A stretch of DNA of 64,000 nucleotides from a virus (Duplodnaviria; Caudoviricetes), in IMG/VR virus record IMGVR_UViG_3300031760_000028, positions 18,871 through 82,870 of that record. The stretch is one strand, 5' to 3'. The translations under genes were made by a program, and so were the position numbers. Each line of letters begins with the position of its first letter. The first letter of the stretch is position 1. Below are positions 6,610 through 64,000 of this stretch, in pieces. A model generated the notes under the pieces. That model was not told the DNA's origin, made no database searches, and was given only the letters and a program-made list of their open reading frames with translations.

Positions 6610-6643
6610 ATTTATAGAAAAAAAGAAATAGGAGATTTTACAA

Positions 6644-7834: not shown

Positions 7835-7837
7835 GAT

Positions 7838-8074: not shown

Positions 8075-8083
8075 AGGGTAAAC

Positions 8084-8332: not shown

Positions 8333-8461
8333 GGAGTTTAAAATGGATTGGATAAAAGTTATAATTAGCGAAATGCTAAAGGTAACTTCTCATTCTTAAT
8401 CCTGATTGTAGGTATATTACAATTAATTATGATGGTAAAGAATGGAAAGAAGGGTAAAAAG

Positions 8462-8635: not shown

Positions 8636-8679
8636 AATTAAGGAAAGTATATTTACATTGGAGTAGAAAGCAGATAAAG

Positions 8680-8708
8680 TTGACATTTAATAAAAAATAT
8701 AATATAAT
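8680..8708 (+). promoter_or_regulatory. sigmaA-type promoter of dnaE
   Basis: Perfect TTGACA-17-TATAAT. Confidence 0.8.
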
Positions 8709-8775
8709 ATTTATATGAATTGAGAATTTCAGAATTATTTAGAACTCATTATGAAAGGAGGGAAGGTAACGACAG

Positions 8776-14414: not shown

Positions 14415-14419
14415 ATGAA

Positions 14420-14460
14420 GGTCTTTTTACTTTAATATTATTATAAATTTTTTCATATAT
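14420..14460 (+). promoter_or_regulatory. Putative phage-specific promoter, GGWCW-N30-ATATAT (nrdD copy)
   Basis: GGTCT at 14420-14424, 30 nt ending in a T-tract, ATATAT at 14455-14460; no TTGACA present. Same geometry at six other sites. Confidence 0.6.
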
Positions 14461-14500
14461 ATTATGACACTAAAATATATAATTAATTGTGGAGGTAACT

Positions 14501-16657
14501 ATGAAAAAAATTATAAAACGAGATAGTAGAGAGGTTGATTTTGATAAAAGCAAAATCAAAGATGCGGTATTAAAAGCTTTTAAATCCGTAGACGGTAAAG
14601 TGTCAGCCTACGCCATTACTAAAGCTGAAAATATTGCAGATTTTATTGAAAAGAGTATACAATTTCAAGACAAAAATTTAACAGTGGAAGAAATTCAAGA
14701 TTATGTAGAAAAAGGCTTAATGTCTATTAAGCGCAAAGATGTTGCAAAAGCATATATTCTTTATAGAAAGCAAAGGGATTATGCACGAAAGAATACTATT
14801 GATGATACAATAGACGAAATTATTGCTAACTCTAATAGCTATTGGACAAGTGAAAATTCTAATAAAGATTCTAAACTAGCAACTACTCAAAGAGATTATA
14901 TCGCAGGAGCAGTGTCTACTGACGCAACAAGACGAAGACTTCTACCCCCAGATATTGTGAAAGCACATGATGAAGGGCTTATACATTTTCATGATGCAGA
15001 TTATTTTATTCAGCCTATTCATAACTGTTGTTTAATTAATCTTGAAGATATGCTACAAAATGGTACAATTATTAGTAAAACAAAAATTGATAAGCCAAAG
15101 AAATTCTCAACTGCTTGTAATATTGCGACTCAGATCATAGCGCAAGTTGCAAGCTCGCAATACGGTGGTCAATCAATTAGTCTAGCACATTTGTCTCCAT
15201 TTATTAAAGAGACAAGAGAGAAGTATCAGAAGGAATTCCCATCTTTTACTAAAGAACAGATTGAACATTTAGTCAATATGGATATTGAGAGTGGTGTGCA
15301 AACAATTCAATATCAAATATTAACATTAATGACTACTAATGGGCAGACTCCATTCATAACAATTTATATGAATTTAGCAGAAGCGCCCGAAGGACAGGAA
15401 AGAGATGACTTAGCTAAATGTATAGAAGAAGTATTAAAGCAAAGAATACTAGGGGTAAAAAATGAGGCGGGAGTATATATTGCTCCAACCTTTCCTAAAT
15501 TAATTTATGCTTTAGATGATTTTAATATATACCCAAATAGCAAATATTTTTATTTAACTAAAATAGCCGCAGAGTGCGTTTCTAAAAGACTTGTTCCAGA
15601 CTTTATCTCTAATAAAGTTCAACGAGAATTAAAACAAGGTCAGACATATACTTGCATGGGGTGTAGAAGTTTCTTGACAAACGATAGAACCACAAAAAAC
15701 TATGCTAAAGCATTAAATTATAAAGAGGGACAGCAAAAATTCTATGGTCGATTCAATCAAGGAGTGGTTACTATTAACTTAGCCGATATTGCTTTATCTT
15801 CCCATAAGGATATAAATAAATTTTGGGAAATTTTTGATGAAAGATTAGAATTATGTCATAGAGCTTTGCAATGCCGCCACAAAAGATTAAAAGGAACTTT
15901 ATCAGATATTGCTCCAGTTTTATGGCAGCACGGGGCTTTAGCAAGATTAAAAAGTGGAGAAGCTATTGATGAATTACTTTATCATGGTTATTCTACTATT
16001 TCTCTTGGATACGCCGCTTTATATGAATGTGTATATTATATGACTGGGAAGTCTCATACAGACGAAGAGGCTAAGCCATTTGCTATTGAAATTATGCAGC
16101 ACTTAAATGATGCTTGTAATAAGTGGAAAGCAGAAGAAGATATTGATTATTCTGTTTATGGAAGTCCTATTGAATCTGTAACTTATAAATTTGCGAAATG
16201 CTTAAGAAAAAGATTTGGTATTATTCCAGAAATTACAGACCATGATTACATAACTAATTCATACCATGTAAACGTAAGAGAAAAAATTGATGCTTTTACC
16301 AAACTAGCTAAAGAAGCCGAGTTTCAAAAGCTAAGTCCAGGTGGCGCAATAAGTTATGCAGAAATACCAAATATGCAGCACAATCTTGATGCAGTTATTA
16401 CATTAATACAGTTTATCTATGAGAATATCATGTATGCTGAATTAAATACAAAAGCTGACTATTGCCATGTATGTGGATATAACGGTGAAATTCAAGTTAA
16501 AGGTACTCAAGGACATTATTATTGGGAATGTCCTAATTGCGGCAATAGAGATCAAAGTAAAATGACAGTCATAAGGAGAACTTGTGGATACATAGGCGGA
16601 AATTATTGGAATCAAGGTCGAACTGAAGAAATTGCAGAGAGAGTATTGCATTTATAA
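14501..16657 (+). CDS. nrdD: Anaerobic (class III) ribonucleoside-triphosphate reductase with ATP cone
   Basis: N-terminal IIKRD ATP cone, HFHD, NCC, MGCR, C-terminal CHVC/CPNC and RRTCGYIG glycyl-radical motif; GGAGG RBS before ATG 14501. Confidence 0.95.
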   Translation: MKKIIKRDSREVDFDKSKIKDAVLKAFKSVDGKVSAYAITKAENIADFIEKSIQFQDKNLTVEEIQDYVEKGLMSIKRKDVAKAYILYRKQRDYARKNTIDDTIDEIIANSNSYWTSENSNKDSKLATTQRDYIAGAVSTDATRRRLLPPDIVKAHDEGLIHFHDADYFIQPIHNCCLINLEDMLQNGTIISKTKIDKPKKFSTACNIATQIIAQVASSQYGGQSISLAHLSPFIKETREKYQKEFPSFTKEQIEHLVNMDIESGVQTIQYQILTLMTTNGQTPFITIYMNLAEAPEGQERDDLAKCIEEVLKQRILGVKNEAGVYIAPTFPKLIYALDDFNIYPNSKYFYLTKIAAECVSKRLVPDFISNKVQRELKQGQTYTCMGCRSFLTNDRTTKNYAKALNYKEGQQKFYGRFNQGVVTINLADIALSSHKDINKFWEIFDERLELCHRALQCRHKRLKGTLSDIAPVLWQHGALARLKSGEAIDELLYHGYSTISLGYAALYECVYYMTGKSHTDEEAKPFAIEIMQHLNDACNKWKAEEDIDYSVYGSPIESVTYKFAKCLRKRFGIIPEITDHDYITNSYHVNVREKIDAFTKLAKEAEFQKLSPGGAISYAEIPNMQHNLDAVITLIQFIYENIMYAELNTKADYCHVCGYNGEIQVKGTQGHYYWECPNCGNRDQSKMTVIRRTCGYIGGNYWNQGRTEEIAERVLHL

Positions 16658-16664
16658 ATATAAT

Positions 16665-16693
16665 TTGATTTTTTTGTTATTTTTTTGTATAAT
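16665..16693 (+). promoter_or_regulatory. sigmaA-type promoter
   Basis: TTGATT-17-TATAAT. Confidence 0.7.
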
Positions 16694-16721
16694 ATAAATA
16701 TAAAAATAAAGGAGAAAAAGA

Positions 16722-17102
16722 ATGGCTGAAAATATTAGTTTAGAGATTGGTAATTTATATGAAGCTAATAAACAATTAATTAAACAATATGAAAAACCGC
16801 TAACTCATCCTGAACTAGCAGCGAAACAAGAGGAACTTGAAGACTTCTTTGAAAATATTGTGCAATACGCTATGTTATTGTGTAATGAGCAAAAAGATTA
16901 TACTGTTTTTCATTTATCAAGAAGTATTACTTCACCACATTTTGCTGCGCGCGAAGCTTTAGGATGTTGCACAGATAGAGGAACTGTCTATTCAATAGAG
17001 AAAACTGAAGATGGTATAGCTTATGAAATTTGGATAGAGATAGATGGTAAAATGTACTGTTATTATCTTTTTCCTTATGACCAAGCAGTTATTGAATGTT
17101 AG
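16722..17102 (+). CDS. Phage hypothetical protein
   Basis: 126-aa ORF with AAGGAG RBS. Confidence 0.75.
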   Translation: MAENISLEIGNLYEANKQLIKQYEKPLTHPELAAKQEELEDFFENIVQYAMLLCNEQKDYTVFHLSRSITSPHFAAREALGCCTDRGTVYSIEKTEDGIAYEIWIEIDGKMYCYYLFPYDQAVIEC

Positions 17103-17116
17103 AGGGGGAGAAAGTA

Positions 17117-17404
17117 ATGATTAATTTAATAAGTTTCATCAGACCTTTCTCTATTGAACAAAAAATATTTATTAGAAACAGCGCGGTTCCTGATAAAATT
17201 AATATAGTTTCAACGAATTTATCTAAATATTCAGAAACTATTTTTGAACTTATTGAACAATATAAAGAAGAGCAACCAGACTTAACTTTATACGGACCGG
17301 TAAATTATTGTGATAAATTGCGACAGCAAATTGTTACAGAGAGTTTATCTAAATATAATAGAATGATACAAGTGACTTTAAAAAGTGAAAATGAGGTAGA
17401 ATAA
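17117..17404 (+). CDS. Hypothetical protein
   Basis: GGGGAG RBS before ATG 17117, in frame with the track ORF. Confidence 0.65.
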   Translation: MINLISFIRPFSIEQKIFIRNSAVPDKINIVSTNLSKYSETIFELIEQYKEEQPDLTLYGPVNYCDKLRQQIVTESLSKYNRMIQVTLKSENEVE

Positions 17405-17408
17405 AAAT

Positions 17409-17648
17409 ATGAAGTATTTAACACAGATAGTGGAAACATACAGAGTTGATGATGAAGAGATGGTCTTAGAGATGATAGAAGAGGCTAAGAAGGATAAGCG
17501 CTTTACTCTAATCAAGCACACTTCTCAGTATAAAGAAAAGAAAGCAAAGGGAGAAGTTATTGATTGCTGGTATAAAGTAAGTTTAACTAAGCAGTTCTGT
17601 GACGAAAAGGAACCTGATGCAACAGTTACTATTGAATATAAGGAGTAA
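17409..17648 (+). CDS. Hypothetical protein
   Basis: 79-aa ORF with GAGG RBS. Confidence 0.75.
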   Translation: MKYLTQIVETYRVDDEEMVLEMIEEAKKDKRFTLIKHTSQYKEKKAKGEVIDCWYKVSLTKQFCDEKEPDATVTIEYKE

Positions 17649-17658
17649 GGATTACTAT

Positions 17659-18114
17659 ATGAATAGTTTCATTTTTGATTGTCCAATAGAAATAAAAAAG
17701 TTATCGAATACTGCAATTATACCTACAAAAGGGAGTGAATATGCGGCGGGTCATGATTTATATGCAGATTTAAAAGAAGCAATTCAAGTAAATCCGGGTG
17801 ATACTTTAAAGATACCTACGGGAATAGCTATGGCTATTCCTAATGGCTACTTTGGAGCTATATATGCGCGCTCTGGGCTTGCTACTAAACAGGGACTCGC
17901 TCCTGCAAATAAAGTTGCGGTGATCGATTCTGATTACAGAGGAGAACTTATAGTCGTATTATATAATCAAAGTAATGTACCACAAATAGTGCATCCCGGA
18001 GATAGAATCGCTCAATTAATTATTCAACCTTACATTGATTATGATGTTAAAATAGTTGAGGAATTAAATTCTACTGAACGCGGAGACGGAGGATTTGGTC
18101 ATAGTGGAAAATAA
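17659..18114 (+). CDS. dut: Trimeric dUTPase
   Basis: AGHDL, ARSGLA, VIDSDYRGE, GDRIAQL and RGDGGFGHSG (motifs 1-5). Confidence 0.95.
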   Translation: MNSFIFDCPIEIKKLSNTAIIPTKGSEYAAGHDLYADLKEAIQVNPGDTLKIPTGIAMAIPNGYFGAIYARSGLATKQGLAPANKVAVIDSDYRGELIVVLYNQSNVPQIVHPGDRIAQLIIQPYIDYDVKIVEELNSTERGDGGFGHSGK

Positions 18115-18115
18115 C

Positions 18116-18146
18116 AAGAAGAGCTGGCGCGAGTCAGCTCTTTTTT
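18116..18146 (+). terminator. Intrinsic terminator
   Basis: GAAGAGCTG-loop-CAGCTCTTT stem followed by a T-run. Confidence 0.8.
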
Positions 18147-18254
18147 ATTTACAACTGCCAATTATCATTTAATTTTAACTGCAAATATCATCAAGATGAT
18201 AATTGATTCATTCGTTTTAAAAAATCATTGATTAGATTTTAGCACTTCCCGCAC

Positions 18255-18283
18255 TTGACAAGAATAAAAAATTTTGATATACT
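18255..18283 (+). promoter_or_regulatory. sigmaA-type promoter of ruvC
   Basis: TTGACA-17-TATACT with extended TG. Confidence 0.75.
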
Positions 18284-18310
18284 GGATGTAGATAAGGAGG
18301 TATATAAACC

Positions 18311-18838
18311 ATGAGTGATATATATACTATAGCTATTGATGCCAGCACGAAATCAAGTGGAGTAGCTATTTTTAAAAATCAACAATTAATTCAATATGAA
18401 TGCATCATTCAGTCATCAAAAGATGTTTTATTTAGAATTAAAAATATGACTAGCGCAATAGAATCAATATATAATATTTACAAAGATAATGAAACCCAAA
18501 TTATAATGGAACAAATTATTCCGGATAATTTGAATGAAGTAGAAGAATGGACTAAAAACCAACAGACATTTAGGGTATTATTTTATCTACAAGCGGCAAT
18601 AGTGCTAATGTTTCATAATTATAATAAAACAGTTGAATTCATAGGAGCTTCATCGTGGCGAAAAAAGTGTGGAATTAAACAAGGCGGGGTAAAGCGAGAT
18701 ACATTAAAGATGAGAGATGTGCAATTTGTGCAAAACGCTTATAATATTTCAGTTAATGACGATATAGCGGATGCTATATGTATAGGTCATTCTAAAGTAA
18801 ATACGATACCTGTACCGCCACCATTTAATTGGGAATAA
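18311..18838 (+). CDS. ruvC: RuvC-like Holliday junction resolvase
   Basis: IAIDASTKSSG, IIMEQ and DDIADAICI RNase H-fold catalytic residues. Confidence 0.8.
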   Translation: MSDIYTIAIDASTKSSGVAIFKNQQLIQYECIIQSSKDVLFRIKNMTSAIESIYNIYKDNETQIIMEQIIPDNLNEVEEWTKNQQTFRVLFYLQAAIVLMFHNYNKTVEFIGASSWRKKCGIKQGGVKRDTLKMRDVQFVQNAYNISVNDDIADAICIGHSKVNTIPVPPPFNWE

Positions 18839-18876
18839 AAATAAGGGAGATGTATAATTACATCTCCCTTATTTTT
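18839..18876. terminator. Bidirectional terminator between the convergent blocks
   Basis: AATAAGGGAGATGTA...TACATCTCCCTTATT inverted repeat with A/T runs on both sides. Confidence 0.85.
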
Positions 18877-55344: not shown

Positions 55345-56626
55345 CTATATTGCCCTCCAATCTTTGAATACGCGCTTGCATTTCTGTATACGCGTTAGAA
55401 TTTTCGTCTACAATAGTATCATTATCTTTTTCTTCTGTTATTCTTTCGTAATACTCTGCTATATCTTCATCTTCTACTTCATCTACTTCATCAATTTCTT
55501 TTTCTTGAGCTTCGTGTTCAAGCTGAATTTTCTTAAGATAATTTTCAATTTGCTGTCCAAAACCTAACTCTTTTGTTACTAAATTATAGACATATTGATT
55601 CTGGTCTTGAATAATCTTATCTATAATATCTAATGGAGCATCAATTTCATGTTCGTCTATAAAACCGCCTTCGCGCTCGCACACCGCAATTAAACGACCC
55701 GTACAATCAATTTGATCATTATCCTTGTCTTTATTCTGCGCCGCAGTAAACTTACCTGACTTTCGTAAACTATCACTTACTCTTGCTAGTTTTTGGTAGC
55801 CATCAACGTCCCCGCAATCAAGAGCTTGATTCATCTTTAAATCAGTTTTACACATAAGTATTAATGTATTTCGAGTATCCGCATCTTGAATATCAAAAGA
55901 ATCCATCATCTCTGTATATTTTTTTTCAAGCTCTACCCATTCATTTGGTTTATATAATCTCCCCCACTTCATCGCAAGATATATTTTGTCTTCCGCAGTT
56001 AATTCTAATGAAGGATCTGGTAAATCGTCTTCTGATATATATAAGTTATTATCTACACCAAAATTAGCGCCTGGGAAAATTGGGGGCGGCGCTAATGAAG
56101 GCTCTGGTTCTCTAGCAATAGGCTCAACTAAGGTTTTATATTCTGCATCAGAAATTTCACCATTCTCATGCTTTTGTTTTAACTCCTCTATTCGTTGAGC
56201 TTCCGCCTCTTTCTGTTCTTCAGTTAACTCCTCACAAGTACTGAATTTTTTAATCAAATACTCAGAATCTGCCCATCCCAATAACTCTTTTGTTTCAGGA
56301 TCTCTGTATTGCGTTAACTTCATTTTTGATAAATACCTTCCTAAAACAGAGGGGCCTCCCTTTCCTTTTACAGGGTCTTCTTGATATTTTTTATCTCTTA
56401 TTACATCCCACTCCGCAGGAATATAAGGTACATCCAAACGTTCAAGTATCCAAGTAAAAGTATCAGGATTAAAATTATCAATATGGGCACACAGACACTC
56501 TTTACACATCTCGTCTCTTGAGCCATCTTTATGTGTATAAAATTTTATTTCTGATAAAGTTTTTCTACATCTTGAACACGTGTATTTCTTTTTTGGAGCC
56601 GCCGCCCCACTTTTCACTGTTGCCAC
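55331..56626 (-). CDS. Zn-ribbon protein, candidate terminase small subunit
   Basis: Directly upstream of and overlapping terL; N-terminal CSRC...CKEC; helical acidic C-terminus. Assignment is positional. Confidence 0.5.
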   Translation of the reverse strand: MATVKSGAAAPKKKYTCSRCRKTLSEIKFYTHKDGSRDEMCKECLCAHIDNFNPDTFTWILERLDVPYIPAEWDVIRDKKYQEDPVKGKGGPSVLGRYLSKMKLTQYRDPETKELLGWADSEYLIKKFSTCEELTEEQKEAEAQRIEELKQKHENGEISDAEYKTLVEPIAREPEPSLAPPPIFPGANFGVDNNLYISEDDLPDPSLELTAEDKIYLAMKWGRLYKPNEWVELEKKYTEMMDSFDIQDADTRNTLILMCKTDLKMNQALDCGDVDGYQKLARVSDSLRKSGKFTAAQNKDKDNDQIDCTGRLIAVCEREGGFIDEHEIDAPLDIIDKIIQDQNQYVYNLVTKELGFGQQIENYLKKIQLEHEAQEKEIDEVDEVEDEDIAEYYERITEEKDNDTIVDENSNAYTEMQARIQRLEGNIDGIS

Positions 56627-57777
56627 TAATCTTTCACGCTCCCTACTTTTTTATTTCGACAACATTTACAGATAGAATACCATCCATCTTTACTTGTCTT
56701 ATTTTTTGAAAAAAATTTGTTATGACCTAATTTAATTTGTCCGCATCTGCTACATCTCTTCCAATACCCTTTTTTGGTGTTCGTATAATAATCTTCCAAC
56801 CAATTTTTTTGTGCCTGCTCCGCAATTAATTTAGGTATTTTATTACGCCATAAAGAAGAAATATATTCAACTGAATATTTTACTCCAAAAGTATTCTCTA
56901 ATTCTTGTTGAATTTCTACATTAGAGCGCCCATCAATTTTGTACACTATAATGTCATAATATAGAGGATAGTCAAGGGCAAGCGCTTGATCAACAACCGC
57001 CTCTAAAGCGCACAATAGATAATACATATCAGATTCAAATTTCCCATAACATTCTTCTTTTAATTTGGAGTAATTACAAAGTAATGCGGAGACGTGTTGA
57101 GGAACCATTAAAGATAAATTTGTTTCTATTTCTAGCTCCCCATCCGGTTTAATAGTTACATCTTCATAAGTGCTTAAAGTTGCTGCATTTTTCATAACAT
57201 TCATACAATTAATCCCGCCGCGGTAAGAAGCTCTTAATACATACTGATCTTTTCTTAAGGCAATGATATTTTGTTTGATTGAATATTTAGCCTTCCCTTT
57301 TGCTGTTTTAAGAGCTTGTTCCAAGCGTTCAATTTCCTGTACTAAAGATGCTAATCCAGGTACTTCCGCAATATCTTTTTCAGTAATAGTATCAAATTTA
57401 GGGGTTAAAAAAATATTTTTATCATTAATAATAAGATTATAAATTGCATCTTCGCCAGTTGCGCCGCCGTCTTCGCTATATTTACTTTCAAACGATGCCG
57501 CCAACCCTTCAAAACTTGTTTCACGTTTATTTATAGTGTACTTTCTATTGTTTGTTAAGATTGTACCTTTTTTAGCTTCATCTTTATATTCTGTGAAAAT
57601 AAGATAGTCTGCTAAAATTTCTAAATATTTATTAGTAAGTTTTTCAGAAGGAGTTGACTCAATAATTTTATTTACTAAATCAATACGCTCTTCATATGTT
57701 TGTAAAGAAGGATCTAATTTAAAAGACTGAGTTTCTTTACTAGGTATATTTAAAGAGCAATTTTGTTCTTTTTCCAT
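56626..57777 (-). CDS. HTH plus Zn-ribbon protein, candidate transcription regulator
   Basis: KIDGRSNVEIQQEL...YISSLWR resembles a sigma region 4 HTH; C-terminal CSRC...CKCC; has its own sigmaA promoter. Confidence 0.5.
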   Translation of the reverse strand: MEKEQNCSLNIPSKETQSFKLDPSLQTYEERIDLVNKIIESTPSEKLTNKYLEILADYLIFTEYKDEAKKGTILTNNRKYTINKRETSFEGLAASFESKYSEDGGATGEDAIYNLIINDKNIFLTPKFDTITEKDIAEVPGLASLVQEIERLEQALKTAKGKAKYSIKQNIIALRKDQYVLRASYRGGINCMNVMKNAATLSTYEDVTIKPDGELEIETNLSLMVPQHVSALLCNYSKLKEECYGKFESDMYYLLCALEAVVDQALALDYPLYYDIIVYKIDGRSNVEIQQELENTFGVKYSVEYISSLWRNKIPKLIAEQAQKNWLEDYYTNTKKGYWKRCSRCGQIKLGHNKFFSKNKTSKDGWYSICKCCRNKKVGSVKD

Positions 57778-57815: not shown

Positions 57816-57890
57816 ATTATACGAAAATTTTTCTTTTTTGTCAACGGTCATTTAAGCAAAATTGACAAAACTTAAAAAATATTTTATAAT
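57816..57890. promoter_or_regulatory. Back-to-back sigmaA promoters
   Basis: Minus strand TTGACA (57844-57839)-17-TATAAT; plus strand TTGACA (57862-57867)-17-TATAAT; a GGTCA box lies between them. Confidence 0.8.
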
Positions 57891-57927: not shown

Positions 57928-58416
57928 ATGTTTAAATATAATGAAGTAGTAGGAAATATTTTTGACTATGAAGATGATTATGCTCTTGCGCATTGCATTA
58001 GCGCAGATTTAGGACTTAGCACAGGTCTCGCAAAAAAGATGCAAGTCCGCTATAATATTCGTGATTGGGTTCAAAAGGTGTATGGAGATTTAAATTTTTG
58101 CGGGCAGGGGTATTGTATTTTAAGTAATAATGGACATATTTTTAATTTAATTGTGCAACAGCAAGAATATGGGCCATTTACATACGAAGCGGCGGCCAGT
58201 GCTTTGCGCGAAATGTTAAGCATTATGCAACGCGCCAATATTAAAAAAATTGCTATGCCTAAAATTGGTACGGGGTTAGCTGGATTAGACTGGGACATTA
58301 TGCACAAAATTATTTTTGATATATTTGGAGAAGCAGAGGTAGAAATAAAAGTTATATATCCTATAGAAACACGGGTGCTGAAGATAGAAGAAACCGATAT
58401 AGGTTGCGTATTTTAA
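57928..58416 (+). CDS. Macrodomain protein (TARG1/DarG/Poa1p-like)
   Basis: GNIFD, AHCISAD...GLAK and KIAMPKIGTGLAGLDW motifs. Confidence 0.8.
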   Translation: MFKYNEVVGNIFDYEDDYALAHCISADLGLSTGLAKKMQVRYNIRDWVQKVYGDLNFCGQGYCILSNNGHIFNLIVQQQEYGPFTYEAAASALREMLSIMQRANIKKIAMPKIGTGLAGLDWDIMHKIIFDIFGEAEVEIKVIYPIETRVLKIEETDIGCVF

Positions 58417-58452
58417 TATAATTAAACTCATTTACTTGTAAATAAGGGGGCT

Positions 58453-58540
58453 GTTATTTGAAATTTGGGATCGTTTTCTCTCTGAGTAGGGGTAACTTCG
58501 TTATTTGAAATTTGGGATCACTTTCTCTCTGAGTGGGGGT
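58453..58540. repeat. Two 41-nt direct repeats, 47-nt period
   Basis: GTTATTTGAAATTTGGGATCnnTTTCTCTCTGAGTnGGGGT at 58453 and 58500, with 3 mismatches. Confidence 0.9.
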
Positions 58541-58868
58541 GGCGAAACCTTTTTTACCTATTTAAAAAAATTTTTTCCCAAAATGCCACCCCCCGGTTGC
58601 TATAAATCAAGAAAAATATTAGGTACATTCGGGATTTTGCCATATTTTAAACGAAATATTCAGCTAAATAAGCCGCTCCATAATTGAATCTAGTAAATTT
58701 TTAGTATTTTAGAATAATATTAAATAAAAAGGTGTAAAGCATGATTAAAATATCATAGTTACTTATTTATTTTTTATTTAAGAGTAATAGAAACAGAACG
58801 TTAATTGCTCGGACTGCGCACAGGCGTTGCAGTCCGAGATTTAAAACTCTTAAGGTTTGCTATTTTTT

Positions 58869-59004
58869 GTTAGAGGTCTCTAACTGTAGTTAGACGTATC
58901 TAACTCCTGTTAACCGTCTCTAACTAGAGTTAGATGTCTCTAACTCTAGTTAAAGGTCTTTAACTCTAGGTAGAGATCTTTAACTCTAGTTAAAGGTCTC
59001 TAAC
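58869..59004. repeat. Seven-copy 20-bp tandem array of palindromic units
   Basis: Consensus GTTAGAGGTCTCTAACTCTA at 58869, 58889, 58909, 58929, 58949, 58969 and 58989. Confidence 0.9.
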
Positions 59005-59093
59005 TTTTTTGGGTAATCCTTAGGAAACTTAAATTAGTATTTTAGTTTTTGTTAGTTGCGCAAGCCGCTCCACAAACGGAAACTGCACAAGAG

Positions 59094-59149
59094 AAAATAG
59101 TTTCCTTGCGCGCATTGACTAGGTGGGGTAGCGCGAAGGAAACTATTTT
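59094..59149. repeat. Inverted repeat with 14-bp perfect arms and a GCGCG inner stem
   Basis: AAAATAGTTTCCTT (59094-59107) and AAGGAAACTATTTT (59136-59149). Confidence 0.85.
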
Positions 59150-59230
59150 ATTTCAGTTTCTTTAAACATCAATAAAATTAAGGGTTTTAAGGAAACTATT
59201 TTAAATCATTTAGTTTCTTCTTTTGAAAAG

Positions 59231-59287
59231 ATTGAATACAATTTAATTGAATACAATTTAATTGAATACAATTTAATTGAATACAAT
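59231..59287. repeat. AT-rich 15-bp tandem repeat (3.8 copies)
   Basis: ATTGAATACAATTTA x3 plus ATTGAATACAAT. Confidence 0.95.
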
Positions 59288-59371
59288 ATTTTTATTTTTA
59301 AAAAAAGTTGTTGACAACTTAAAATAAAGGTGCTATAATGTAATTACAATAAAGGAAAGAGGTAAAATAAA

Positions 59372-59557
59372 ATGACAACAACAACAATTAAGAAAACAGT
59401 TTTAAATGCTTTAGAAAACATCGTTGAAGCTTATGACATGACAGACAGAGAAACATGGGAAACACTGTTTCAAGTACCATCATACAAAACAGACATTGAC
59501 TTAGACTATATTATTACTAGATTAAAAGAGGAAATAGCAAATGAAGAAGAGGTTTAA
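59372..59557 (+). CDS. Early acidic protein, paralog A
   Basis: Shares ETWETLFQVPSYKTDIDLDYII with 60152-60334. Confidence 0.85.
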   Translation: MTTTTIKKTVLNALENIVEAYDMTDRETWETLFQVPSYKTDIDLDYIITRLKEEIANEEEV

Positions 59558-59652
59558 AAACCTCTTCTAAAAAAAATAAAAAAAGTTGTTGACAGGCAGG
59601 TTTTTAGATGATATAATAAATATATCAAAAGGAAAGAGAGAAAGAAATAAAC

Positions 59653-59784
59653 ATGGTTTATTACATTGTGGATGCTGAAGGCAGATTAGTAACAACAGAT
59701 TGTGATGAATTAATCGCAACAGCAGTTGCAGAGGCTTTAGGAGGCTATTGCTATGCTAAGCCTTTAGCGACTAAGTCGAATTAA
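59653..59784 (+). CDS. Early small protein, 43 aa (not in the track)
   Basis: MVYYIVDAEGRLVTTDCDELIATAVAEALGGYCYAKPLATKSN*; own promoter and purine-rich leader. Confidence 0.75.
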   Translation: MVYYIVDAEGRLVTTDCDELIATAVAEALGGYCYAKPLATKSN

Positions 59785-59801
59785 TCGACTTAGTGCCGAA
59801 A

Positions 59802-59918
59802 ATTATATCATACACGAAGGCATTTTGTCAATAGGCAATTTAAACAAATTTTTCTCTGTAAAAAAATCCCATTTTGTGCAAATTTTTTATTGACAGTATT
59901 ATTCTAATCTGTTATAAT
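59802..59918. promoter_or_regulatory. Divergent promoter/operator cassette A
   Basis: Leftward TTGACA-18-TATAAT, 58-nt spacer containing TCCC...TTTGTGCA, rightward promoter. Confidence 0.75.
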
Positions 59919-59951
59919 AATATCAGAGTTAAGGAAAGAGAGGAAAACAAA

Positions 59952-60056
59952 ATGGCAAGTATTTCAATCAATGGTTACAAAGTAGGTATTGTTGAAGTAA
60001 CCGTTAATGATATAAAGAAACTTGAGCAGGCTGGTTTTACAGTTGAGATTATTTAA
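59952..60056 (+). CDS. Early small protein, 34 aa
   Basis: MASISINGYKVGIVEVTVNDIKKLEQAGFTVEII*; GAGAGG RBS. The track start at 59874 lies upstream of the promoter. Confidence 0.75.
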   Translation: MASISINGYKVGIVEVTVNDIKKLEQAGFTVEII

Positions 60057-60151
60057 TCTCAGCTGTAAAGAAAAAAAATAAAAAAAGTTGTTGACAAAGT
60101 AAAATAAAGATGATATAATGTAATTACAATAAAGGAAAGAGGTAAAATAAA

Positions 60152-60334
60152 ATGACAGGATTAGAAATTAAGAAAACAGTTTTAAATGCTTTAACAACAA
60201 TCGCCGAAGATATGACCGAAAATGAAACATGGGAAACACTGTTTCAAGTACCATCATACAAAACAGATATTGACTTAGACTATATTATTGAAAGTCTGAA
60301 AAAAACAATAGCTGAGGATGAGGAAGAGGCTTAA
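60152..60334 (+). CDS. Early acidic protein, paralog B
   Basis: Duplicate of 59372-59557 with near-identical flanking promoters. Confidence 0.85.
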   Translation: MTGLEIKKTVLNALTTIAEDMTENETWETLFQVPSYKTDIDLDYIIESLKKTIAEDEEEA

Positions 60335-60421
60335 AGCCTCTTCTAAAAAAATAAAAAAGTGTTGACAGACAGGTTCTTAGATGATATAATAAATATATCA
60401 AAAGGAAAGAGAGAATATAAA

Positions 60422-60730
60422 ATGATAAATATTAGAACACTTAGAAAAATAACAAATAACGGTGGTCTCACTCTTAAGGCAGGTAAGCCAATTACTTATA
60501 AAAGCGGTTGGCAAGTAGCGACCGAAGGAAGCGCAACAACAGACATCCATGAAGCTATGAAAATGATTAAAGCTTTTGGTGGTAACTGCGGGATTTGGCT
60601 TGAAAATGGAATTTATTATATTGACAAAAGTAAAAGAGTAAGTACAAAGCGCGAGGCAATGAAAATAGGACGCGAATGCAATCAGATAAGCATTTTAAGA
60701 TGGCGCGACATGAGCTTAGCTTATTGCTAA
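60422..60730 (+). CDS. Early hypothetical protein, 102 aa
   Basis: Real start MINIRTLRK after the promoter at 60362. Confidence 0.75.
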   Translation: MINIRTLRKITNNGGLTLKAGKPITYKSGWQVATEGSATTDIHEAMKMIKAFGGNCGIWLENGIYYIDKSKRVSTKREAMKIGRECNQISILRWRDMSLAYC

Positions 60731-60771
60731 GCTTATGTGTTTTTTGTTTGCGGTCGAGCTGCCGCCGAAAA

Positions 60772-60887
60772 ATTATACCATACGAGAACGAGTTTTGTCA
60801 AGTAGAAAATGTGAAAAAAATGCACAAATAAAATTTCCTAATTTGTGCAAAATTATAGTTGACAAATTACGCTTAAAATGATATACT
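60772..60887. promoter_or_regulatory. Divergent promoter/operator cassette B
   Basis: Leftward TTGACA-18-TATAAT, 57-nt spacer with TGCACAAA...TTTGTGCA, rightward promoter. Confidence 0.8.
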
Positions 60888-60937
60888 TTAATTACAGTAA
60901 AGGAAAGGAAAGCCAAAAGGCTGAAAGGTAAAAAGAT

Positions 60938-61102
60938 ATGAAGAATATAATAACAAATGGCGATATGTTTTTAAAGACATACCCAAATTCTAAAGTTGAA
61001 GAAGTGTCAAATATTAAAGTTACGGTTGACGTAGGCCTGGGTTACTTCTCAGCGGACTTTGATAAAGACTGGTGGGAAGCACCATATAATGAAGAAAAAT
61101 AG
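60938..61102 (+). CDS. Early small protein, 54 aa (not in the track)
   Basis: MKNIITNGDMFLKTYPNSKV...DKDWWEAPYNEEK*. Confidence 0.75.
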   Translation: MKNIITNGDMFLKTYPNSKVEEVSNIKVTVDVGLGYFSADFDKDWWEAPYNEEK

Positions 61103-61168
61103 TTGTTGACAAATAACCGGAAATGTGATAATATATAATATCAGAAAGAAAGAAAGAGAGGAACAAAA

Positions 61169-61333
61169 ATGATGAGTAGAGAAGAAATGCTTAACGAAAT
61201 AATAAGAAAAAGAGGTTTTGAAGATGAATATACAATAGAGTTCTCAAGGATGGCAGAGACAATAACCAATATAGACATTCTGCGGTTAGCTTTTTCGGCA
61301 ATGATAAATAAACCAGTGATGGATGAGGAGTAA
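61169..61333 (+). CDS. Early small protein, 54 aa (not in the track)
   Basis: MMSREEMLNEIIRKRGFEDEYTIEF...VMDEE*; GAGAGG RBS. Confidence 0.75.
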   Translation: MMSREEMLNEIIRKRGFEDEYTIEFSRMAETITNIDILRLAFSAMINKPVMDEE

Positions 61334-61394
61334 ATCTCCTCGTCTTTGGCGGTCTGCTAGCGGCTGTGCGAATCGCTAGCAGACCGCTGTACTT

Positions 61395-61510
61395 GTTAGA
61401 GCAGATCTCAGGCTGTTTGTCAAGCACTTTTTGATGTGCAAACTGCACAAAAAAATTCCCGAAATTTGTGCATTTTTTTGCTTGACAAGCAGTAACCGGT
61501 GTGATATACT
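61395..61510. promoter_or_regulatory. Divergent promoter/operator cassette C (leftward -10 degenerate)
   Basis: Leftward TTGACA at 61423-61418; 58-nt spacer TGTGCAAACTGCACAAA...TCCC...TTTGTGCA. Confidence 0.7.
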
Positions 61511-61543
61511 TATATCAAGATAAGAGAAAGAGAGGTACTGAAT

Positions 61544-61792
61544 ATGAAAGAAATGTTTTTTGGTATGGTAAAATTTATAGTTGGCTTAGCAATAGTAATA
61601 CTTATTTTGATAGGTGCTTGCTATCTCGAAAAGAAGCACGATGAAAAAATTTATAATAACGGTGTCTGCACAGAATGTGGCGGAAATTATATTTTTTCAG
61701 GCTCCGCGCACGTTAAAAATTCAGATGATATTTATTATTATACCTGTGATAAATGCGGACACACTATTAAAGTAAATAGAATAATGAAATAA
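61544..61792 (+). CDS. Early membrane-anchored Zn-ribbon protein
   Basis: N-terminal TM helix; CTEC...CDKC. Confidence 0.75.
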   Translation: MKEMFFGMVKFIVGLAIVILILIGACYLEKKHDEKIYNNGVCTECGGNYIFSGSAHVKNSDDIYYYTCDKCGHTIKVNRIMK

Positions 61793-61863
61793 AAGCGGTT
61801 GTTGACAAGATAAAAAACATATGCTATAATAAAGATACAAAGTAAGAAAGAGAGGAATAAGCT

Positions 61864-62055
61864 ATGAGAGTTAATCTTATCGGAAATTGTGTATTTTGTA
61901 ATAGAGGTTGGGCAGTTGAAGTTAATCAGACTGACCTTGAAAAATATGAGGCAGGCGCACTTGCACAGGACGCTTTTCCATATCTAACCCCAACAGAAAG
62001 AGAATGTATAATCTCTGGTATGTGCCCTACTTGTCAGGATAAGATTTTTGAATAG
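61864..62055 (+). CDS. Early Zn-binding protein
   Basis: CVFC...CPTC; own promoter and RBS. Confidence 0.75.
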   Translation: MRVNLIGNCVFCNRGWAVEVNQTDLEKYEAGALAQDAFPYLTPTERECIISGMCPTCQDKIFE

Positions 62056-62154
62056 GTGTCATAAAATTTTGAAAAATATTCAAATAAAGGGTTGACAGCA
62101 CCGGTTTAAAGTGCTATAATTTAAGTCAAGATAAAGGAAAGAGAGGTACAAAAA

Positions 62155-62382
62155 ATGTTTAAATTTTTTTAAGAAAAACAAAGAAATGAAAGAAAGATAC
62201 AGTGTTGTTTTTGTGATACTAATAGTATAGATACTGCTTTTGAAACGTATGGAACGTATGACACTTATGAAACAGCAGACCACGTTATTAGAATGGCATG
62301 GAATAAAACAAAAAATCAAAAAATTAATGATGGTTATAAAGTCGGTGAAAATTGGACAATCATCAAAAAAATAAAAAAGTAG
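62155..62382 (+). pseudogene. Early gene interrupted by TAA at codon 6 (or two compensating T-run indels)
   Basis: ATG TTT AAA TTT TTT TAA; the same frame is then open to TAG 62380-62382. Promoter and RBS are intact. Confidence 0.55.
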
Positions 62383-62417
62383 TTGACAAAGTACTTTCTT
62401 TATGATATTATAATATC

Positions 62418-62545
62418 AAGAAGAGGAGCTCTTCTAGTAAAGAGTAAGCGGCGGGCAGAGCCTAGCGCCTTCCCGGAAGCTGAGAAAGCTATATACCTCT
62501 TCACGTAACTACCGACCACAAGCCCTGTAAAAAAGGGCTTTTTTA
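62418..62545 (+). ncRNA. Putative structured small RNA
   Basis: Own promoter (62383), no ATG-initiated ORF, GAAGAGG/CCTCTTC closing stem with inner hairpins, and terminator AAGCCC...GGGCTT-T run. Confidence 0.65.
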
Positions 62546-62594
62546 TTTGGCGGCGCGGTCGCGCTCAGATTACATCCTCGCGCGCCGCTGATTG

Positions 62595-62710
62595 ATTATA
62601 CTATAGAGTCAGCCATTTGTCAAGCGATTTTTTGTGTAAAATTGCACAAATATTTATCCCAAAATTTGTGCAATTTGACAGTTGACATTTTAGCTATTGT
62701 CTGATATAAT
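62595..62710. promoter_or_regulatory. Divergent promoter/operator cassette D
   Basis: Leftward TTGACA-17-TATAAT; 58-nt spacer TGTGTAAAATTGCACAAA...TCCC...TTTGTGCA. Confidence 0.8.
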
Positions 62711-62739
62711 GTATACATAAGGTAAGGGAGGAACTAACA

Positions 62740-62895
62740 ATGGTTGAAAAAAATAGAAAAAAAGAGCTTGCAAAAGCTCAGAGAGTATGGTATAATATGA
62801 ATACAGGTACAGTATCTCATAAAGATATAAAACATCCATCAAGAAAAGATAGAAAAAAAGAATTGAAAAAGATACTTGACAGCTATAAAGATTAA
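62740..62895 (+). CDS. Early basic protein, 51 aa (not in the track)
   Basis: MVEKNRKKELAKAQRVWYNMNTGTVSHKDIKHPSRKDRKKELKKILDSYKD*; GGGAGG RBS. Confidence 0.8.
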   Translation: MVEKNRKKELAKAQRVWYNMNTGTVSHKDIKHPSRKDRKKELKKILDSYKD

Positions 62896-62931
62896 TGGTA
62901 TAATATAGTTACAAAAGATGAAAGGAGATAT

Positions 62932-63120
62932 ATGGAACAGTGGAAAGAATTAAAAGAAACAATTATGGAATTAAGCAAGCTTCCGCAGATGGTTAACCAG
63001 ACTGAGTTATGTATGTTTCTTTTGGCTTATATGGAAGTATTAGAAGATCGAATGAGAGATGATACTTATCCGAGTAAGAAAAATAATAAAAAAGGGGTTG
63101 ACAAATGGTCAGCCCCATGA
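62932..63120 (+). CDS. Early hypothetical protein
   Basis: AAGGAG RBS; its 3' end contains the next promoter. Confidence 0.7.
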   Translation: MEQWKELKETIMELSKLPQMVNQTELCMFLLAYMEVLEDRMRDDTYPSKKNNKKGVDKWSAP

Positions 63121-63158
63121 TATAATAGTATCATCAAAAGAGAAAAGGAGAAAAAGAA

Positions 63159-63368
63159 ATGGTAAATGACAGAATTAAGCTACTTAAGGAAATGAATCAG
63201 TATATTCTAAACCTTGGAGACGAAGATATTTTCGATATATGGTTCTCGGTAGGTATCCCCGATGAAGCTACTGAAGAGGACTATCGCTCTATTGCAGAGG
63301 ATACTGAAGAATGGGTATATATATGTAAGATGTTTGGAAGGCTTGTTGCACAGGGAGAGGAGGGGTAA
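63159..63368 (+). CDS. Early acidic hypothetical protein
   Basis: GDEDIFDIW...GIPDEATEED; AAGGAG RBS; terminator overlaps the stop. Confidence 0.8.
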   Translation: MVNDRIKLLKEMNQYILNLGDEDIFDIWFSVGIPDEATEEDYRSIAEDTEEWVYICKMFGRLVAQGEEG

Positions 63369-63434
63369 TACTCCTCTCTTTTTTGGATGTCGGCGCGAGC
63401 ACGTTGGCTGTGCCCGTGCGAGCGCCGATATTCC

Positions 63435-63541
63435 ATTATATCACGCTCCGCAATTTTTGTCAAGCATTTTCTTTTGTGCAAATTGCACAAAGATCTTCCT
63501 GAAATTTTGTGCTTGACTTACAAAGAGTTATCTGCTATAAT
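63435..63541. promoter_or_regulatory. Divergent promoter/operator cassette E
   Basis: Leftward TTGACA-17-TATAAT; 49-nt spacer with TTGTGCAAATTGCACAA; rightward TTGACT-17-TATAAT. Confidence 0.8.
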
Positions 63542-63670
63542 AATAATTGTCAAGGGGAGAAATGAGGTAGGGATTGTGAGCGCGCCACCTGACCGAGAGA
63601 CAAGGATGGAAGAAATTGAAAAATTTCAAAAAAACCCCTTGACAAACACTTAAAAATTTGCTATACTGAG

Positions 63671-63820
63671 TATAGAAAGTGAGGTAAGGGAAATGAGGTC
63701 ACCGCCGAGATAAACTTTAATAATCATAATACTGTGTAAAGCAGGGCGCATAAGGTCGGGAGCCAATGTGGCGCCAAAGAAATTAGACCGTAGGTAGTAG
63801 AAGTTCCCACCGCTACCAAA
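63671..63820 (+). ncRNA. Putative structured RNA unit, copy 1 (203-bp tandem repeat)
   Basis: Own promoter (63639); GC-rich complementary segments; only mini-ORFs present. Confidence 0.55.
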
Positions 63821-63873
63821 AAAAAGATTTTAAAAAAATGCTTGACAGAAAATAAAAAATTTGCTATAATATA

Positions 63874-64000
63874 TATAGAAAGTGAGGTAAGGGAAATGAG
63901 GTCACCGCCGAGATAAACTTTAATAATCATAATACTGTGTAAAGCAGGGCGCATAAGGTCGGGAGCCAATGTGGCGCCAAAGAAATTAGACCGTAGGTAG
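63874..64000 (+). repeat. Copy 2 of the same unit (truncated by the window end)
   Basis: Identical to 63671-63797 and preceded by a related but non-identical promoter (63842). Confidence 0.9.

Follow-up and report, generated by a model that had tools for sequence, protein, structure and literature searches.

The DNA analyzed here (the window, 64,000 nt) comes from a siphovirus-type, gut-type phage of Clostridia of ~130 kb that is uncultured, as is its host. Five junction cassettes, A to E, are present in it and, judged by their predicted promoters, separate early mini-operons read by the host RNA polymerase; the coordinates given for them in an earlier note on this DNA all proved correct when checked against the sequence, and the five GC stems were located where that note had placed them. 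Read rightwards, the order is sense terminator, GC hairpin, leftward sigmaA promoter, TGCACAA/TTGTGCA elements and rightward promoter, as listed below (promoters are predicted, with consensus positions matched given as fractions; z compares the fold of the leftward RNA with dinucleotide shuffles).

Cassette A
59767..59796, no strand: hairpin, 13-pair stem of moderate G+C, z -5.2; overlaps the stop codon of the 43-aa gene 59653-59784
59802..59831, minus: leftward sigmaA promoter, TTGACA-18-TGnTATAAT, 12/12
59832-59889: gap from -35 to -35, 58 nt
59873..59880, plus: TTTGTGCA element, 9 nt upstream of the rightward -35; partner sites decayed
59890..59918, plus: rightward promoter, 12/12; drives the 34-aa gene 59952-60056
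Cassette B
60708..60748, plus: sense terminator, 13-pair stem and T-run
60750..60765, no strand: short GC stem, weak, 4-5 pairs, z -3.0
60772..60801, minus: leftward promoter, TTGACA-18-TATGGTATAAT, 12/12
60802-60858: gap from -35 to -35, 57 nt
60821..60849, no strand: element pair TGCACAAA-N13-TTTGTGCA
60859..60887, plus: rightward promoter, 11/12; drives the 54-aa gene 60938-61102
Cassette C
61348..61388, no strand: GC hairpin, 14-16 pairs, z -5.8
61393..61423, minus: decayed leftward promoter, -35 TTGACA intact, -10 TAACAA, 19-nt spacer
61424-61481: gap from -35 to -35, 58 nt
61435..61472, no strand: palindrome TGTGCA-AAC-TGCACAAA, then TTTGTGCA
61482..61510, plus: rightward promoter, 11/12; drives the 82-aa membrane/zinc-ribbon gene 61544-61792
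Cassette D
62520..62548, plus: sense terminator, closes the ~130-nt non-coding unit 62418-62545
62549..62588, no strand: GC hairpin, z -4.2
62595..62623, minus: leftward promoter, 12/12, 17-nt spacer
62624-62681: gap from -35 to -35, 58 nt
62634..62672, no strand: TGTGTA-N4-TGCACAAA, then TTTGTGCA
62682..62710, plus: rightward promoter, 12/12; drives the 51-aa basic protein gene 62740-62895
Cassette E
63359..63384, plus: sense terminator
63385..63434, no strand: GC hairpin, core 63390-63428, z -7.3
63435..63463, minus: leftward promoter, 12/12 with TG extension
63464-63512: gap from -35 to -35, 49 nt
63473..63512, no strand: palindrome TTGTGCA-AAT-TGCACAA and a third site directly against the rightward -35, nearer by one helical turn than in A-D
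63513..63541, plus: rightward promoter, TTGACT, 11/12

The gaps between the back-to-back -35 boxes, when re-counted, are those previously claimed, and the shorter one in cassette E, by about one helical turn, fits a 10-bp quantization of spacing across the family described below; aligned, the five cassettes share the invariant blocks ATTATA and TTTGTCAA. The proposal that each rightward promoter drives a mini-gene holds for A to D and fails for E, where no open reading frame lies behind the promoter (ATG-AGG-TAG), which probably drives a non-coding unit. On the leftward side, the promoters of A, B, D and E match TTGACA-17/18-TATAAT at 12/12 positions, with TG preceding the -10 in A, B and E, so that the perfect TATAAT ascribed to these four is confirmed, with TAACAA in C. 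The whole 82.9-kb record holds six perfect minus-strand promoters, four of which are these, and the remaining two (window 57844 and 38280) drive real leftward genes; in quality the leftward promoters are equal to any gene promoter of the genome. As the earlier note had it, they have no gene: no ATG-started leftward ORF begins immediately downstream at any cassette, and the few leftward GTG/TTG frames that open within or next to the stems lack a ribosome site. No leftward terminator was found after these promoters either, and the leftward RNA has no defined 3′ end.

Several features of the hairpins point to structural selection, since the loop of cassette C is identical to that of the related locus L081 while the stems differ in a compensated manner, and in a small hairpin subfamily 4/8 pairs are substituted on both arms, with no pair altered on a single arm. 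A purine-rich loop, AGGAACG, is kept in one hairpin subfamily. Among copies within one phage the hairpin sequences are wholly different, and no Rfam family, CRISPR repeat families included, was matched even at E up to 5. The stems are almost wholly Watson-Crick, giving the same hairpin from either strand, and stability is equal on both strands (47 vs 40 units), so that the functional strand is not readable from the sequence. Neither stem nor promoter strictly requires the other, as the weak stem of cassette B and the dead leftward promoter of cassette C indicate.

A pattern scan of IMG/VR returned at least 116 loci, and the presence at many of them of a homologue of the neighboring 383-aa sigma-like gene identifies the loci as true relatives; on this comparison, the cassette is not private to the present record. 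Among the matches listed, 146 of 870 near-consensus promoters lead directly into G+C-rich DNA, and 117 lead into a hairpin with a folding energy of -10 kcal/mol or lower; the cassette is conserved in relatives. Of these 117 listed units, 74 run antisense to the genes around them, and 57 of those have a GC core that begins 7-9 nt after the -10, which is the expected start site; this supports the earlier claim that leftward transcription would start close to the stem, the RNA being predicted to begin at the stem base. In the same set of matches, the backward -10 carries the Gram-positive TRTG extension, a GG-initial flank is found in 33/74 antisense units vs 12/468 gene promoters, and a T-rich tail follows the second hairpin on the promoter strand in only 10/71 units. 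The promoter lies on the sense side in 35 of the relatives' listed units, where the GC core begins 0-1 nt after the -10; the RNA could then not include the hairpin in full, and a 5′ cap thus cannot be the only role of the stem. In L081, ~ten units occupy 10 kb, one per ~1-kb operon, and a complete 130-kb relative, whose genome has terminal repeats, carries them only at 110-121 kb; the unit is absent from the two cultured relatives checked, Enterococcus phage VRE9_2 and Enterocloster phage PMBT24.

That strong promoters border the stem in either orientation, sometimes on both sides together, could also mean that small GC hairpin RNAs are themselves the product, as abundant, very stable early stem-loops that would sequester, as sponges or decoys, a host RNA-binding protein, nuclease or sensor, and both the identity of the hairpin from the two strands and the retained loop of one subfamily would suit such a role. 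This is nevertheless very improbable, because the complete divergence of copies in one phage makes sequence-specific mimicry impossible; the lack of an Rfam match, the lack of a terminator to release a short RNA in antisense units and the position of the start site inside the stem in sense units also speak against it. Promoters without a gene might likewise serve replication, with leftward transcripts forming R-loops or primers at G+C-rich sites as multiple transcription-dependent origins, where a G+C-rich initial transcript could give a stable RNA-DNA hybrid and a folded non-template strand could hold the loop open. The copy number, five here and ~ten to twenty in relatives, with one per operon boundary, makes this extremely improbable, as do the separate, origin-like iteron and tandem-repeat region at 58869-59290 and the A+T-rich unwinding element, not a GC clamp, of known R-loop origins such as T4 oriF/oriG.

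We tentatively favor, at somewhat less than an even chance, an operon-boundary cassette whose backward promoter yields a non-coding antisense RNA with a 5′ hairpin cap, insulating or silencing the upstream unit. The five units would be copies of a conserved composite junction cassette at the operon boundaries of an early mini-gene array, each made up of the intrinsic terminator that ends the upstream operon, a G+C-rich hairpin whose sequence is arbitrary, a full-consensus sigmaA promoter aimed back with its start site at the hairpin base, TTTGTGCA-type upstream elements, one or two in number and in fixed phase with each -35, and the rightward promoter of the next operon. Leftward firing by host sigmaA polymerase would produce a non-coding RNA with a GC stem-loop at its extreme 5′ end. 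In Firmicutes, a 5′ stem-loop is a known protection of untranslated RNA from 5′-end-dependent decay, and in Bacillus 5′-terminal stem-loops stabilize RNAs against RNase J1/Y. As antisense, the RNA would cross the terminator in reverse and extend over the 3′ portion of the upstream operon; together with head-on polymerase traffic, it may insulate the next operon from read-through and lower or destabilize the upstream transcripts. The backward promoter, being of the plain sigmaA kind, should be active early, together with its targets, and the timed shut-off previously proposed would thus need an extra regulator.

The hairpin probably also serves the sense strand in its own right, either as a second terminator or as a 3′ clamp, since it persists in cassette C with its decayed promoter and in sense-type units of relatives, which have no backward promoter. 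Taken further, it could be chiefly a second sense-strand terminator, with the backward promoter mattering as bound polymerase and not through its RNA: a very stable open complex over the hairpin DNA would block or dislodge read-through polymerases and so isolate the operons. The hairpin always lies within a few nt after the sense terminator, and the DNA 3′ of it on the sense strand is moderately T-rich (AAWTTYC, then ATTATA; often TTTTTGTC in sense-type units). In sense-type units, moreover, local transcripts without the 5′ arm would escape termination and read-through ones would not. On the basis of E. coli data, the full consensus and GG flank predict long-lived promoter complexes. Although a real contender, this explanation seems unlikely, given that A occupies the two sense-strand positions adjoining the stem in 84% and 76% of the antisense units among the matches listed, which is poor for an intrinsic terminator, that the hairpins of cassettes A and B have no T-run at all, and that a terminator role leaves the exact 7-9 nt from -10 to stem unexplained; in known cases of promoter interference, furthermore, the sitting polymerase is usually displaced by the elongating one.

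The elements between the promoters account for 9/16 window copies of TTGTGCA/TGCACAA, which fall within 59874-63490, with up to three half-sites per spacer and the last one alone in cassette A, as described before. Across the family, TTTGTGCA precedes each -35 by 9/10 or 19/20 nt, on the strand of its own promoter, with its partner site at 32/42 nt, in agreement with the one-turn-shorter cassette E. It is also found singly, upstream of single promoters, and in an equal arrangement at some housekeeping promoters in Clostridia genomes (acpP, mraZ, ylxM, purA, nrdR). The supposed operator is therefore better read as one element per promoter in fixed orientation, the inverted repeat arising because two promoters stand back to back, each with its own element; a host factor is then as likely a reader as a dedicated phage repressor, and the three-half-site operator of one dedicated regulator envisaged earlier is not upheld. 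In the favored antisense arrangement, these would be upstream promoter elements, read probably by a host factor or the host polymerase and not necessarily an operator. A dedicated switch, in which one phage repressor or activator at TGCACAA/TTGTGCA would co-control both promoters, turning early genes off or flipping sense to antisense, is quite improbable. It would fit the placement of the sites between both promoters with helical phase kept and the 15-17-bp palindrome in cassettes C and E; XRE-type autoregulated genes in Clostridia contigs (L150, L139) carry the same sites, one of them between -35 and -10, so that proteins reading this motif exist. As had been noted, no repressor gene is evident in the window, and the rest of the record encodes one winged-helix protein (TrmB/MarR-like) and a second, weak candidate regulator. 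The sites, however, occupy about -45 to -62, beyond the core promoter, and occur singly before single promoters; the covered 61% of the genome contains no XRE homologue, and a phage repressor cannot explain the sites at host genes.

The earlier statement that no named element has this layout needs amending, since the promoter-early stem-loop (PeSL) cassettes of T4-like myoviruses (Arbiol et al. 2010, PMC2839356; Comeau et al. 2014, PMC4122927) are the closest named relative, although without a backward promoter. Both are short repeated intergenic units amid small genes of unknown function, combining a stem-loop terminator with a ribosome site and a strong early promoter of the host type, such that each small gene block would be expressed separately, isolated from its neighbors. 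PeSLs, however, are one-directional, with neither a second, gene-less promoter back through the stem-loop nor TTTGTGCA-type elements; their upstream region is A+T-rich, and they belong to myoviruses of Gram-negative hosts, unrelated in lineage and host to the present siphovirus-type phage of Clostridia. What is new relative to known phage promoter-terminator cassettes is the predicted gene-less backward promoter into a GC hairpin. The OOP RNA of lambda, made from a constitutive promoter antisense to the 3′ end of cII, is similar in that a host-type promoter just downstream of a gene is aimed back, setting a non-coding RNA against the upstream 3′ end. OOP, however, is a single 77-nt RNA with its own terminator, whereas the present cassettes are numerous, lack a leftward terminator and place a dedicated 5′ GC stem-loop beyond the region of overlap. 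The host-takeover module of Bacillus phage SPO1, reportedly described by Stewart and colleagues in 1998, shares the dense array of tiny early genes, every one of which has its own near-consensus sigmaA promoter and strong ribosome site, and the location of the array next to a genome end or origin region; we know of no repeated backward promoter-hairpin unit or TTTGTGCA element described there. In the window, simple PeSL-like units (hairpin, A-tract, promoter) are interspersed between the composite cassettes, and two of them are 92% identical over 71 nt yet stand before different genes, a pattern like that given by PeSL exchange.

The five operon-junction units between 59767 and 63541 (cassettes A to E) each combine a sense terminator, a GC-rich hairpin, a leftward sigmaA promoter with no gene behind it, upstream elements and a rightward promoter, and the coordinates and counts reported for them in the earlier note all hold when checked against the sequence. 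The -35 boxes of the back-to-back promoters are separated by 58, 57, 58, 58 and 49 nt in A to E, respectively; the leftward promoters match the consensus at 12 of 12 positions in A, B, D and E, and in C the -35 is intact and the -10 reads TAACAA. Only six perfect minus-strand promoters occur in the whole record, four in the cassettes and two driving real leftward genes, and no ATG-started leftward ORF lies just downstream of any cassette promoter. The GC stems are also real, with fold z-scores for the leftward RNA of -5.2 (A), -3.0 (B, where the stem is weak), -5.8 (C), -4.2 (D) and -7.3 (E), and they are kept as structure although the stem sequences are wholly unlike between copies. Canonical sense terminators immediately precede B, D and E, and a weaker one precedes C. 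The proposal that each rightward promoter drives a mini-gene stands except for E, whose promoter has no ORF behind it.

The cassettes lie in the early region of a phage with 32% G+C, represented by an 82,870-bp record (61% complete by CheckV) that ends at window position 64000. Its gene content includes a PolIII-alpha polymerase and an anaerobic ribonucleotide reductase, and its portal protein is closest to that of the gut phage phAss-1, for which a host among the Clostridia has been predicted by its authors (PMC10607447). The array and its surroundings are laid out as follows.

56626-57777, minus strand: 383-aa gene whose product shares 42% identity with proteins that carry a sigma-factor annotation in Enterococcus phages of 140 kb
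57816-57890: perfect sigmaA promoter of the 383-aa gene, back to back with the promoter of the macro-domain gene
57928-58416: macro-domain gene, divergent from the 383-aa sigma-like gene
58453-58540: two direct repeats of 41 nt each
58840-59025: iteron-like array of seven phased 20-bp dyad units
59231-59287: tandem repeat, about four copies of a 15-bp unit
59300 to the record end, plus strand: mini-genes of 34-102 aa

The sigma-like protein, which is not recognized by Pfam, heads a long leftward operon; the next gene is PhoH-like in the Enterococcus relative, and in the window the corresponding position is occupied by a gene with only a weak SHOCT match in Pfam. The iteron array and tandem repeats (58869-59290) form an origin-like region that separates the macro-domain gene from the early array. 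Each mini-gene is preceded by a TTGACA-17-TGnTATAAT promoter of its own and by a polypurine ribosome site. The ten mini-proteins of the array gave nothing above cut-off against Pfam, no tRNA was found in the window, and Rfam returned nothing relevant for the whole window at gathering thresholds or for 58400-64000 at E values up to 5. Comparison of the region by blastn with 50,697 phage records yielded one uncultured faecal fragment and otherwise promoter-sized matches only, and tblastx of the array against relatives, run without a low-complexity filter, was overwhelmed by promoter matches, and no synteny was drawn from it.

The architecture is shared by a wide family of phages. Scanning IMG/VR with the pattern TTGTCAA-gap-TGCACAA-gap-TTGTGCA gave matches in at least 116 contig stretches. 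Many of the contigs among the matches listed are 120-190 kb long, and many encode a homologue of the array-adjacent sigma-like gene, which identifies them as true relatives with about 40-60% protein identity. In one relative with the same units (L081) there are about ten in 10 kb, one for each operon of about 1 kb; another relative, a complete genome of 130 kb with terminal repeats, has them between 110 and 121 kb only. The reversed control pattern matched no record. The at least 116 loci contain 870 promoters within one mismatch of the consensus, 146 of which directly enter DNA with a G+C content of at least 55%, the genomes themselves having about 30-40%, and in 117 units a hairpin of -10 kcal/mol or better directly follows the promoter. 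Relative to the neighbouring genes, 74 units are oriented against them, as in the window, and 35 with them; the GC core starts 7-9 nt past the -10 in 57 of the 74 antisense units, which is the expected start site, and 0-1 nt past it in 24 of the 35 sense units. The flank begins with GG in 33/74 antisense units versus 12/468 gene promoters. The backward promoters carry the TRTG extension typical of Gram-positive bacteria, and this extension, together with matches at 12 of 12 positions and conservation in 74 units, rules out spurious promoters arising from A+T-rich DNA.

The unit is absent from the cultured relatives Enterococcus phage VRE9_2, whose sigma-like protein is the one 42% identical, and Enterocloster phage PMBT24; phAss-1 (OQ749652) has two TGCACAAA-N14-TTTGTGCA sites without the full architecture, and the paper describing it does not discuss promoters (PMC10607447). 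In VRE9_2 (PP680568.1), positions 400-5300 contain many early promoters with the -35 in the loop of a short GC stem, e.g. GGG-TTGACA-AACCC, and neither TTGTGCA elements nor backward promoters, a mode of fusing stem-loop and promoter that differs from that of the window cassettes. The cassette is, in summary, real, conserved and undescribed in the literature searched, and it is its function that we infer.

Across the family the stems have 7-18 pairs and loops of 3-16 nt, with variable sequence. Copy C and one L081 unit have a common loop and different, fully compensated stems, and a comparison of six hairpins from one subfamily found both partners changed in four of eight pairs and a single partner changed in none, a count that is supportive only, as these hairpins were picked because they fold. 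On the promoter strand the flank of the stem is A-rich, the order past the stem being an A-run and then the reverse complement of the sense terminator. A T-rich tail past this second hairpin occurs in only 10 of 71 units and in none of the window copies, so the leftward RNA lacks a stop of its own and would continue antisense into the gene upstream. The sense-strand 3' flank, AAWTTYC, has A at its first position in 84% and at its second in 76% of the units and is a poor U-tract; sense-type units more often have TTTTTGTC there. Folding energy is equal between strands, favouring the promoter strand in 47 units and the opposite strand in 40, and the G-U pairs (62 on the promoter strand vs 38) are counted in fold windows whose choice favours the promoter strand; with no usable asymmetry in either measure, the strand of action is not readable from the sequence. 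Every unit has a stem-loop. In the simple units (59553-59595, 60329-60367 and similar) a short GC stem leads into an A-run, not a T-run, that forms the upstream tract of the next promoter, a PeSL-like layout with a U-tract on neither strand of the stem.

The tight coupling between -10 and stem has a simple reading, in which a leftward RNA would begin at the base of the stem, and full-consensus promoters across a wide family, the lack of a leftward gene and the site just past the sense terminator fit such a start. In Firmicutes, as work on Bacillus RNases J1 and Y established, a 5'-terminal stem-loop protects RNA that is not covered by ribosomes. The mRNAs of the phage open instead with the polypurine ribosome site, about 25 nt from the start. 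The stem lies beyond the part of the sense transcript that ends at the first terminator, so it has the look of a 5' module reserved for an antisense RNA, whose body would be complementary to the terminator and the 3' end of the upstream operon. A non-coding antisense RNA with a 5' hairpin cap that insulates or down-regulates the upstream unit is thus the reading that we favour, with a probability falling just short of an even chance. Its main rival, which we regard as rather unlikely, takes the GC hairpin as a back-up terminator and the promoter-bound polymerase as a roadblock; it draws on the stems that survive without a backward promoter, in copy C and in the sense-type units, and on the consideration that a sense-type promoter starting in the stem would escape a terminator that halts read-through. 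Antisense RNA and roadblock are mutually compatible, and the stem probably has a role on both strands. Timed shut-off of early genes, as first proposed for a dedicated switch, would need a regulator, because the backward promoter is itself of the early type, and none was found.

The earlier note knew of no named element with this layout; the closest is the PeSL cassette of T4-like phages, in which a stem-loop terminator and a strong early promoter are repeated among small genes and mediate modular exchange (PMC2839356, PMC4122927). The small genes around PeSL units are non-essential, the promoter is of the sigma70 type, and recombination between copies gives rise to mini-circles and to indels between related phages. 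As in PeSL, early-promoter units are repeated here among small genes, with about 17 perfect promoters within 6.5 kb and a mini-gene after each, and the window also holds simple PeSL-like units. PeSL has a stem-loop and then an A+T-rich stretch before the -35, where the simple units have an A-tract and the five composite units carry the TTTGTGCA elements and the backward promoter. The gene-less backward promoter and the phased TTTGTGCA elements are lacking in PeSL, and the PeSL phages and their hosts are unrelated to those considered here. A 436-bp module composed of a 43-aa gene, cassette A and a 34-aa gene lies between the two copies of a 340-bp duplication (59299-59642 and 60079-60415); the duplicated segments contain paralogous 61- and 60-aa genes with 82-88% DNA identity, each followed by a promoter unit 92% identical to the other and then by different genes, an arrangement that hints at PeSL-like exchange.

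Lambda OOP offers a second comparison, as its promoter lies downstream of the target and reads back over its 3' end, the geometry found in the five copies and in the 74 units of relatives; OOP, however, is a short discrete RNA with its own terminator, which has no counterpart here given the scarcity of T-rich tails. Other candidates were rejected. The units upstream of the cassettes encode soluble-looking proteins of 43, 102, 54 and 69 aa, plus one non-coding unit, and no small hydrophobic membrane toxin, unlike type I toxin-antitoxin pairs with a 3'-overlapping antisense RNA such as txpA/RatA and bsrG/SR4. RNA anti-CRISPRs or solitary CRISPR repeats are disfavoured by stems that differ between copies and by the lack of Rfam matches, CRISPR-DR models included, at E values up to 5. 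Hairpin promoters of the N4 type have a short conserved hairpin of 5-7 pairs with a 3-nt loop, against the longer range of stems and loops and the variable sequence seen here, and depend on a giant virion RNA polymerase; the 2766-aa protein of this phage is instead a tape measure (PF10145), and a sigma-factor homologue is encoded.

Taken over all promoters of the loci fetched, the end of TTGTGCA falls 9/10 or 19/20 nt before the -35 on the promoter's own strand, with an opposite-sense copy 32/33 or 42/43 nt upstream of the -35. The operator sites proposed in the earlier note are present and phased, but are better read as single elements, one for each promoter, than as a shared operator of up to three half-sites; their orientation is fixed and they lie on one face of the helix. 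Two promoters placed back to back give rise to the inverted repeat, with an element at 9 nt from the gene promoter and one at 19-20 nt from the backward promoter; these offsets account for the gaps of 57-58 nt and for copy E, whose rightward -35 is one turn closer. Sense-type units have a single element, which merges with the T-run of the terminator before it.

The same arrangement occurs in bacteria. The pattern TTTGTGCA-9/10 nt-TTGACA-16-18 nt-TATAAT matched at least 120 contigs of a collection with one genome per species, and most of the matches listed belong to Clostridia (Oscillospiraceae, Ruminococcus, Lachnospiraceae, Oscillibacter). About 22 of these contigs are phage-like; other matches lie at chromosomal promoters, including those of acpP, mraZ, ylxM, purA, nrdR and tRNA genes, where the element is conserved between species and the -35/-10 spacer has diverged. 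The family that includes Ruminococcus albus 8, covered by 81 genomes, has TTTGTGCA no more than 30 nt ahead of TTGACA in about 240 cases vs about 17 for the reversed control, with 31 further matches from a repeat family in one genome, and the gap between the two, counted by hand in the matches listed, peaks at 2, 9-10, 19-20 and 24-26 nt. One genome of this family (G018) has about 30 copies of a repeat of about 37 nt, with TTTGTGCAC at its start and TTTGACA at its end, which may be a dispersed promoter-like repeat family. Among 120 fetched bacterial loci, further phased TTTGTGCA-promoter pairs number 30 in the 22 phage-like contigs vs 2 elsewhere; the element is therefore rare in hosts, with few copies per genome, and the host reading rests on orthologous conservation and the excess over the reversed control.

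Some contigs have the element around XRE-type autoregulated genes, and no homologue of these XRE proteins is present in the 61% complete record. Two candidate regulators are encoded in the record outside the window (L246, record positions 1-18870).

16395-16757 (16324-16757 with a perfect promoter): TrmB/MarR-like winged-helix protein of 120 aa
13672-14010 (13419-14010 with three tandem promoters): weaker winged-helix candidate of 112 aa, with weak Pfam support only

A literature search with the letters of the TTTGTGCA motif retrieved unrelated papers only. Our reading of the element is a promoter-associated site for a host factor or the polymerase, which stands at about even odds with a phage-encoded regulator. 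The combined proposal is distinctly unlikely to hold in full: that a maximally strong gene-less promoter, abutting a GC hairpin and directed back towards the preceding terminator, would be a boundary device isolating and timing phage early operons, through a 5'-capped antisense RNA or a polymerase roadblock, and that TTTGTGCA would belong to gut Clostridia (Oscillospiraceae, Ruminococcus, Lachnospiraceae) as an undescribed upstream promoter element, helix-phased near -48 or -58 and recognized by a host factor of which these phages take advantage.

Large Clostridia phages of this type are common in gut and rumen metagenomes, none with the cassette is in culture, and their early regions are read wholly by the host polymerase. 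A conserved, repeated promoter without a gene is a testable handle on how dozens of tiny early operons are kept separate and perhaps switched off. If TTTGTGCA is read by a host factor, it would be a first cis-regulatory motif for promoters of little-studied gut Clostridia and a sequence signature for host prediction, and the module of terminator, backward promoter and forward promoter could be an insulator part for engineering Firmicutes.

Two further observations concern units of the array without genes. Upstream of cassette D, 62383-62545 comprises a TTGACA-17-TATTAT promoter, about 130 nt without a start codon and a clean terminator, and is probably a structured non-coding RNA in a gene slot. 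Between 63541 and 64000, three promoters have no ORF behind them (the rightward promoter of cassette E and those at 63639 and 63842), and these units have no Rfam match; the units at 63639 and 63842 share 92% identity over 179 nt and repeat with a 203-bp period, the second of them being cut off by the end of the record.
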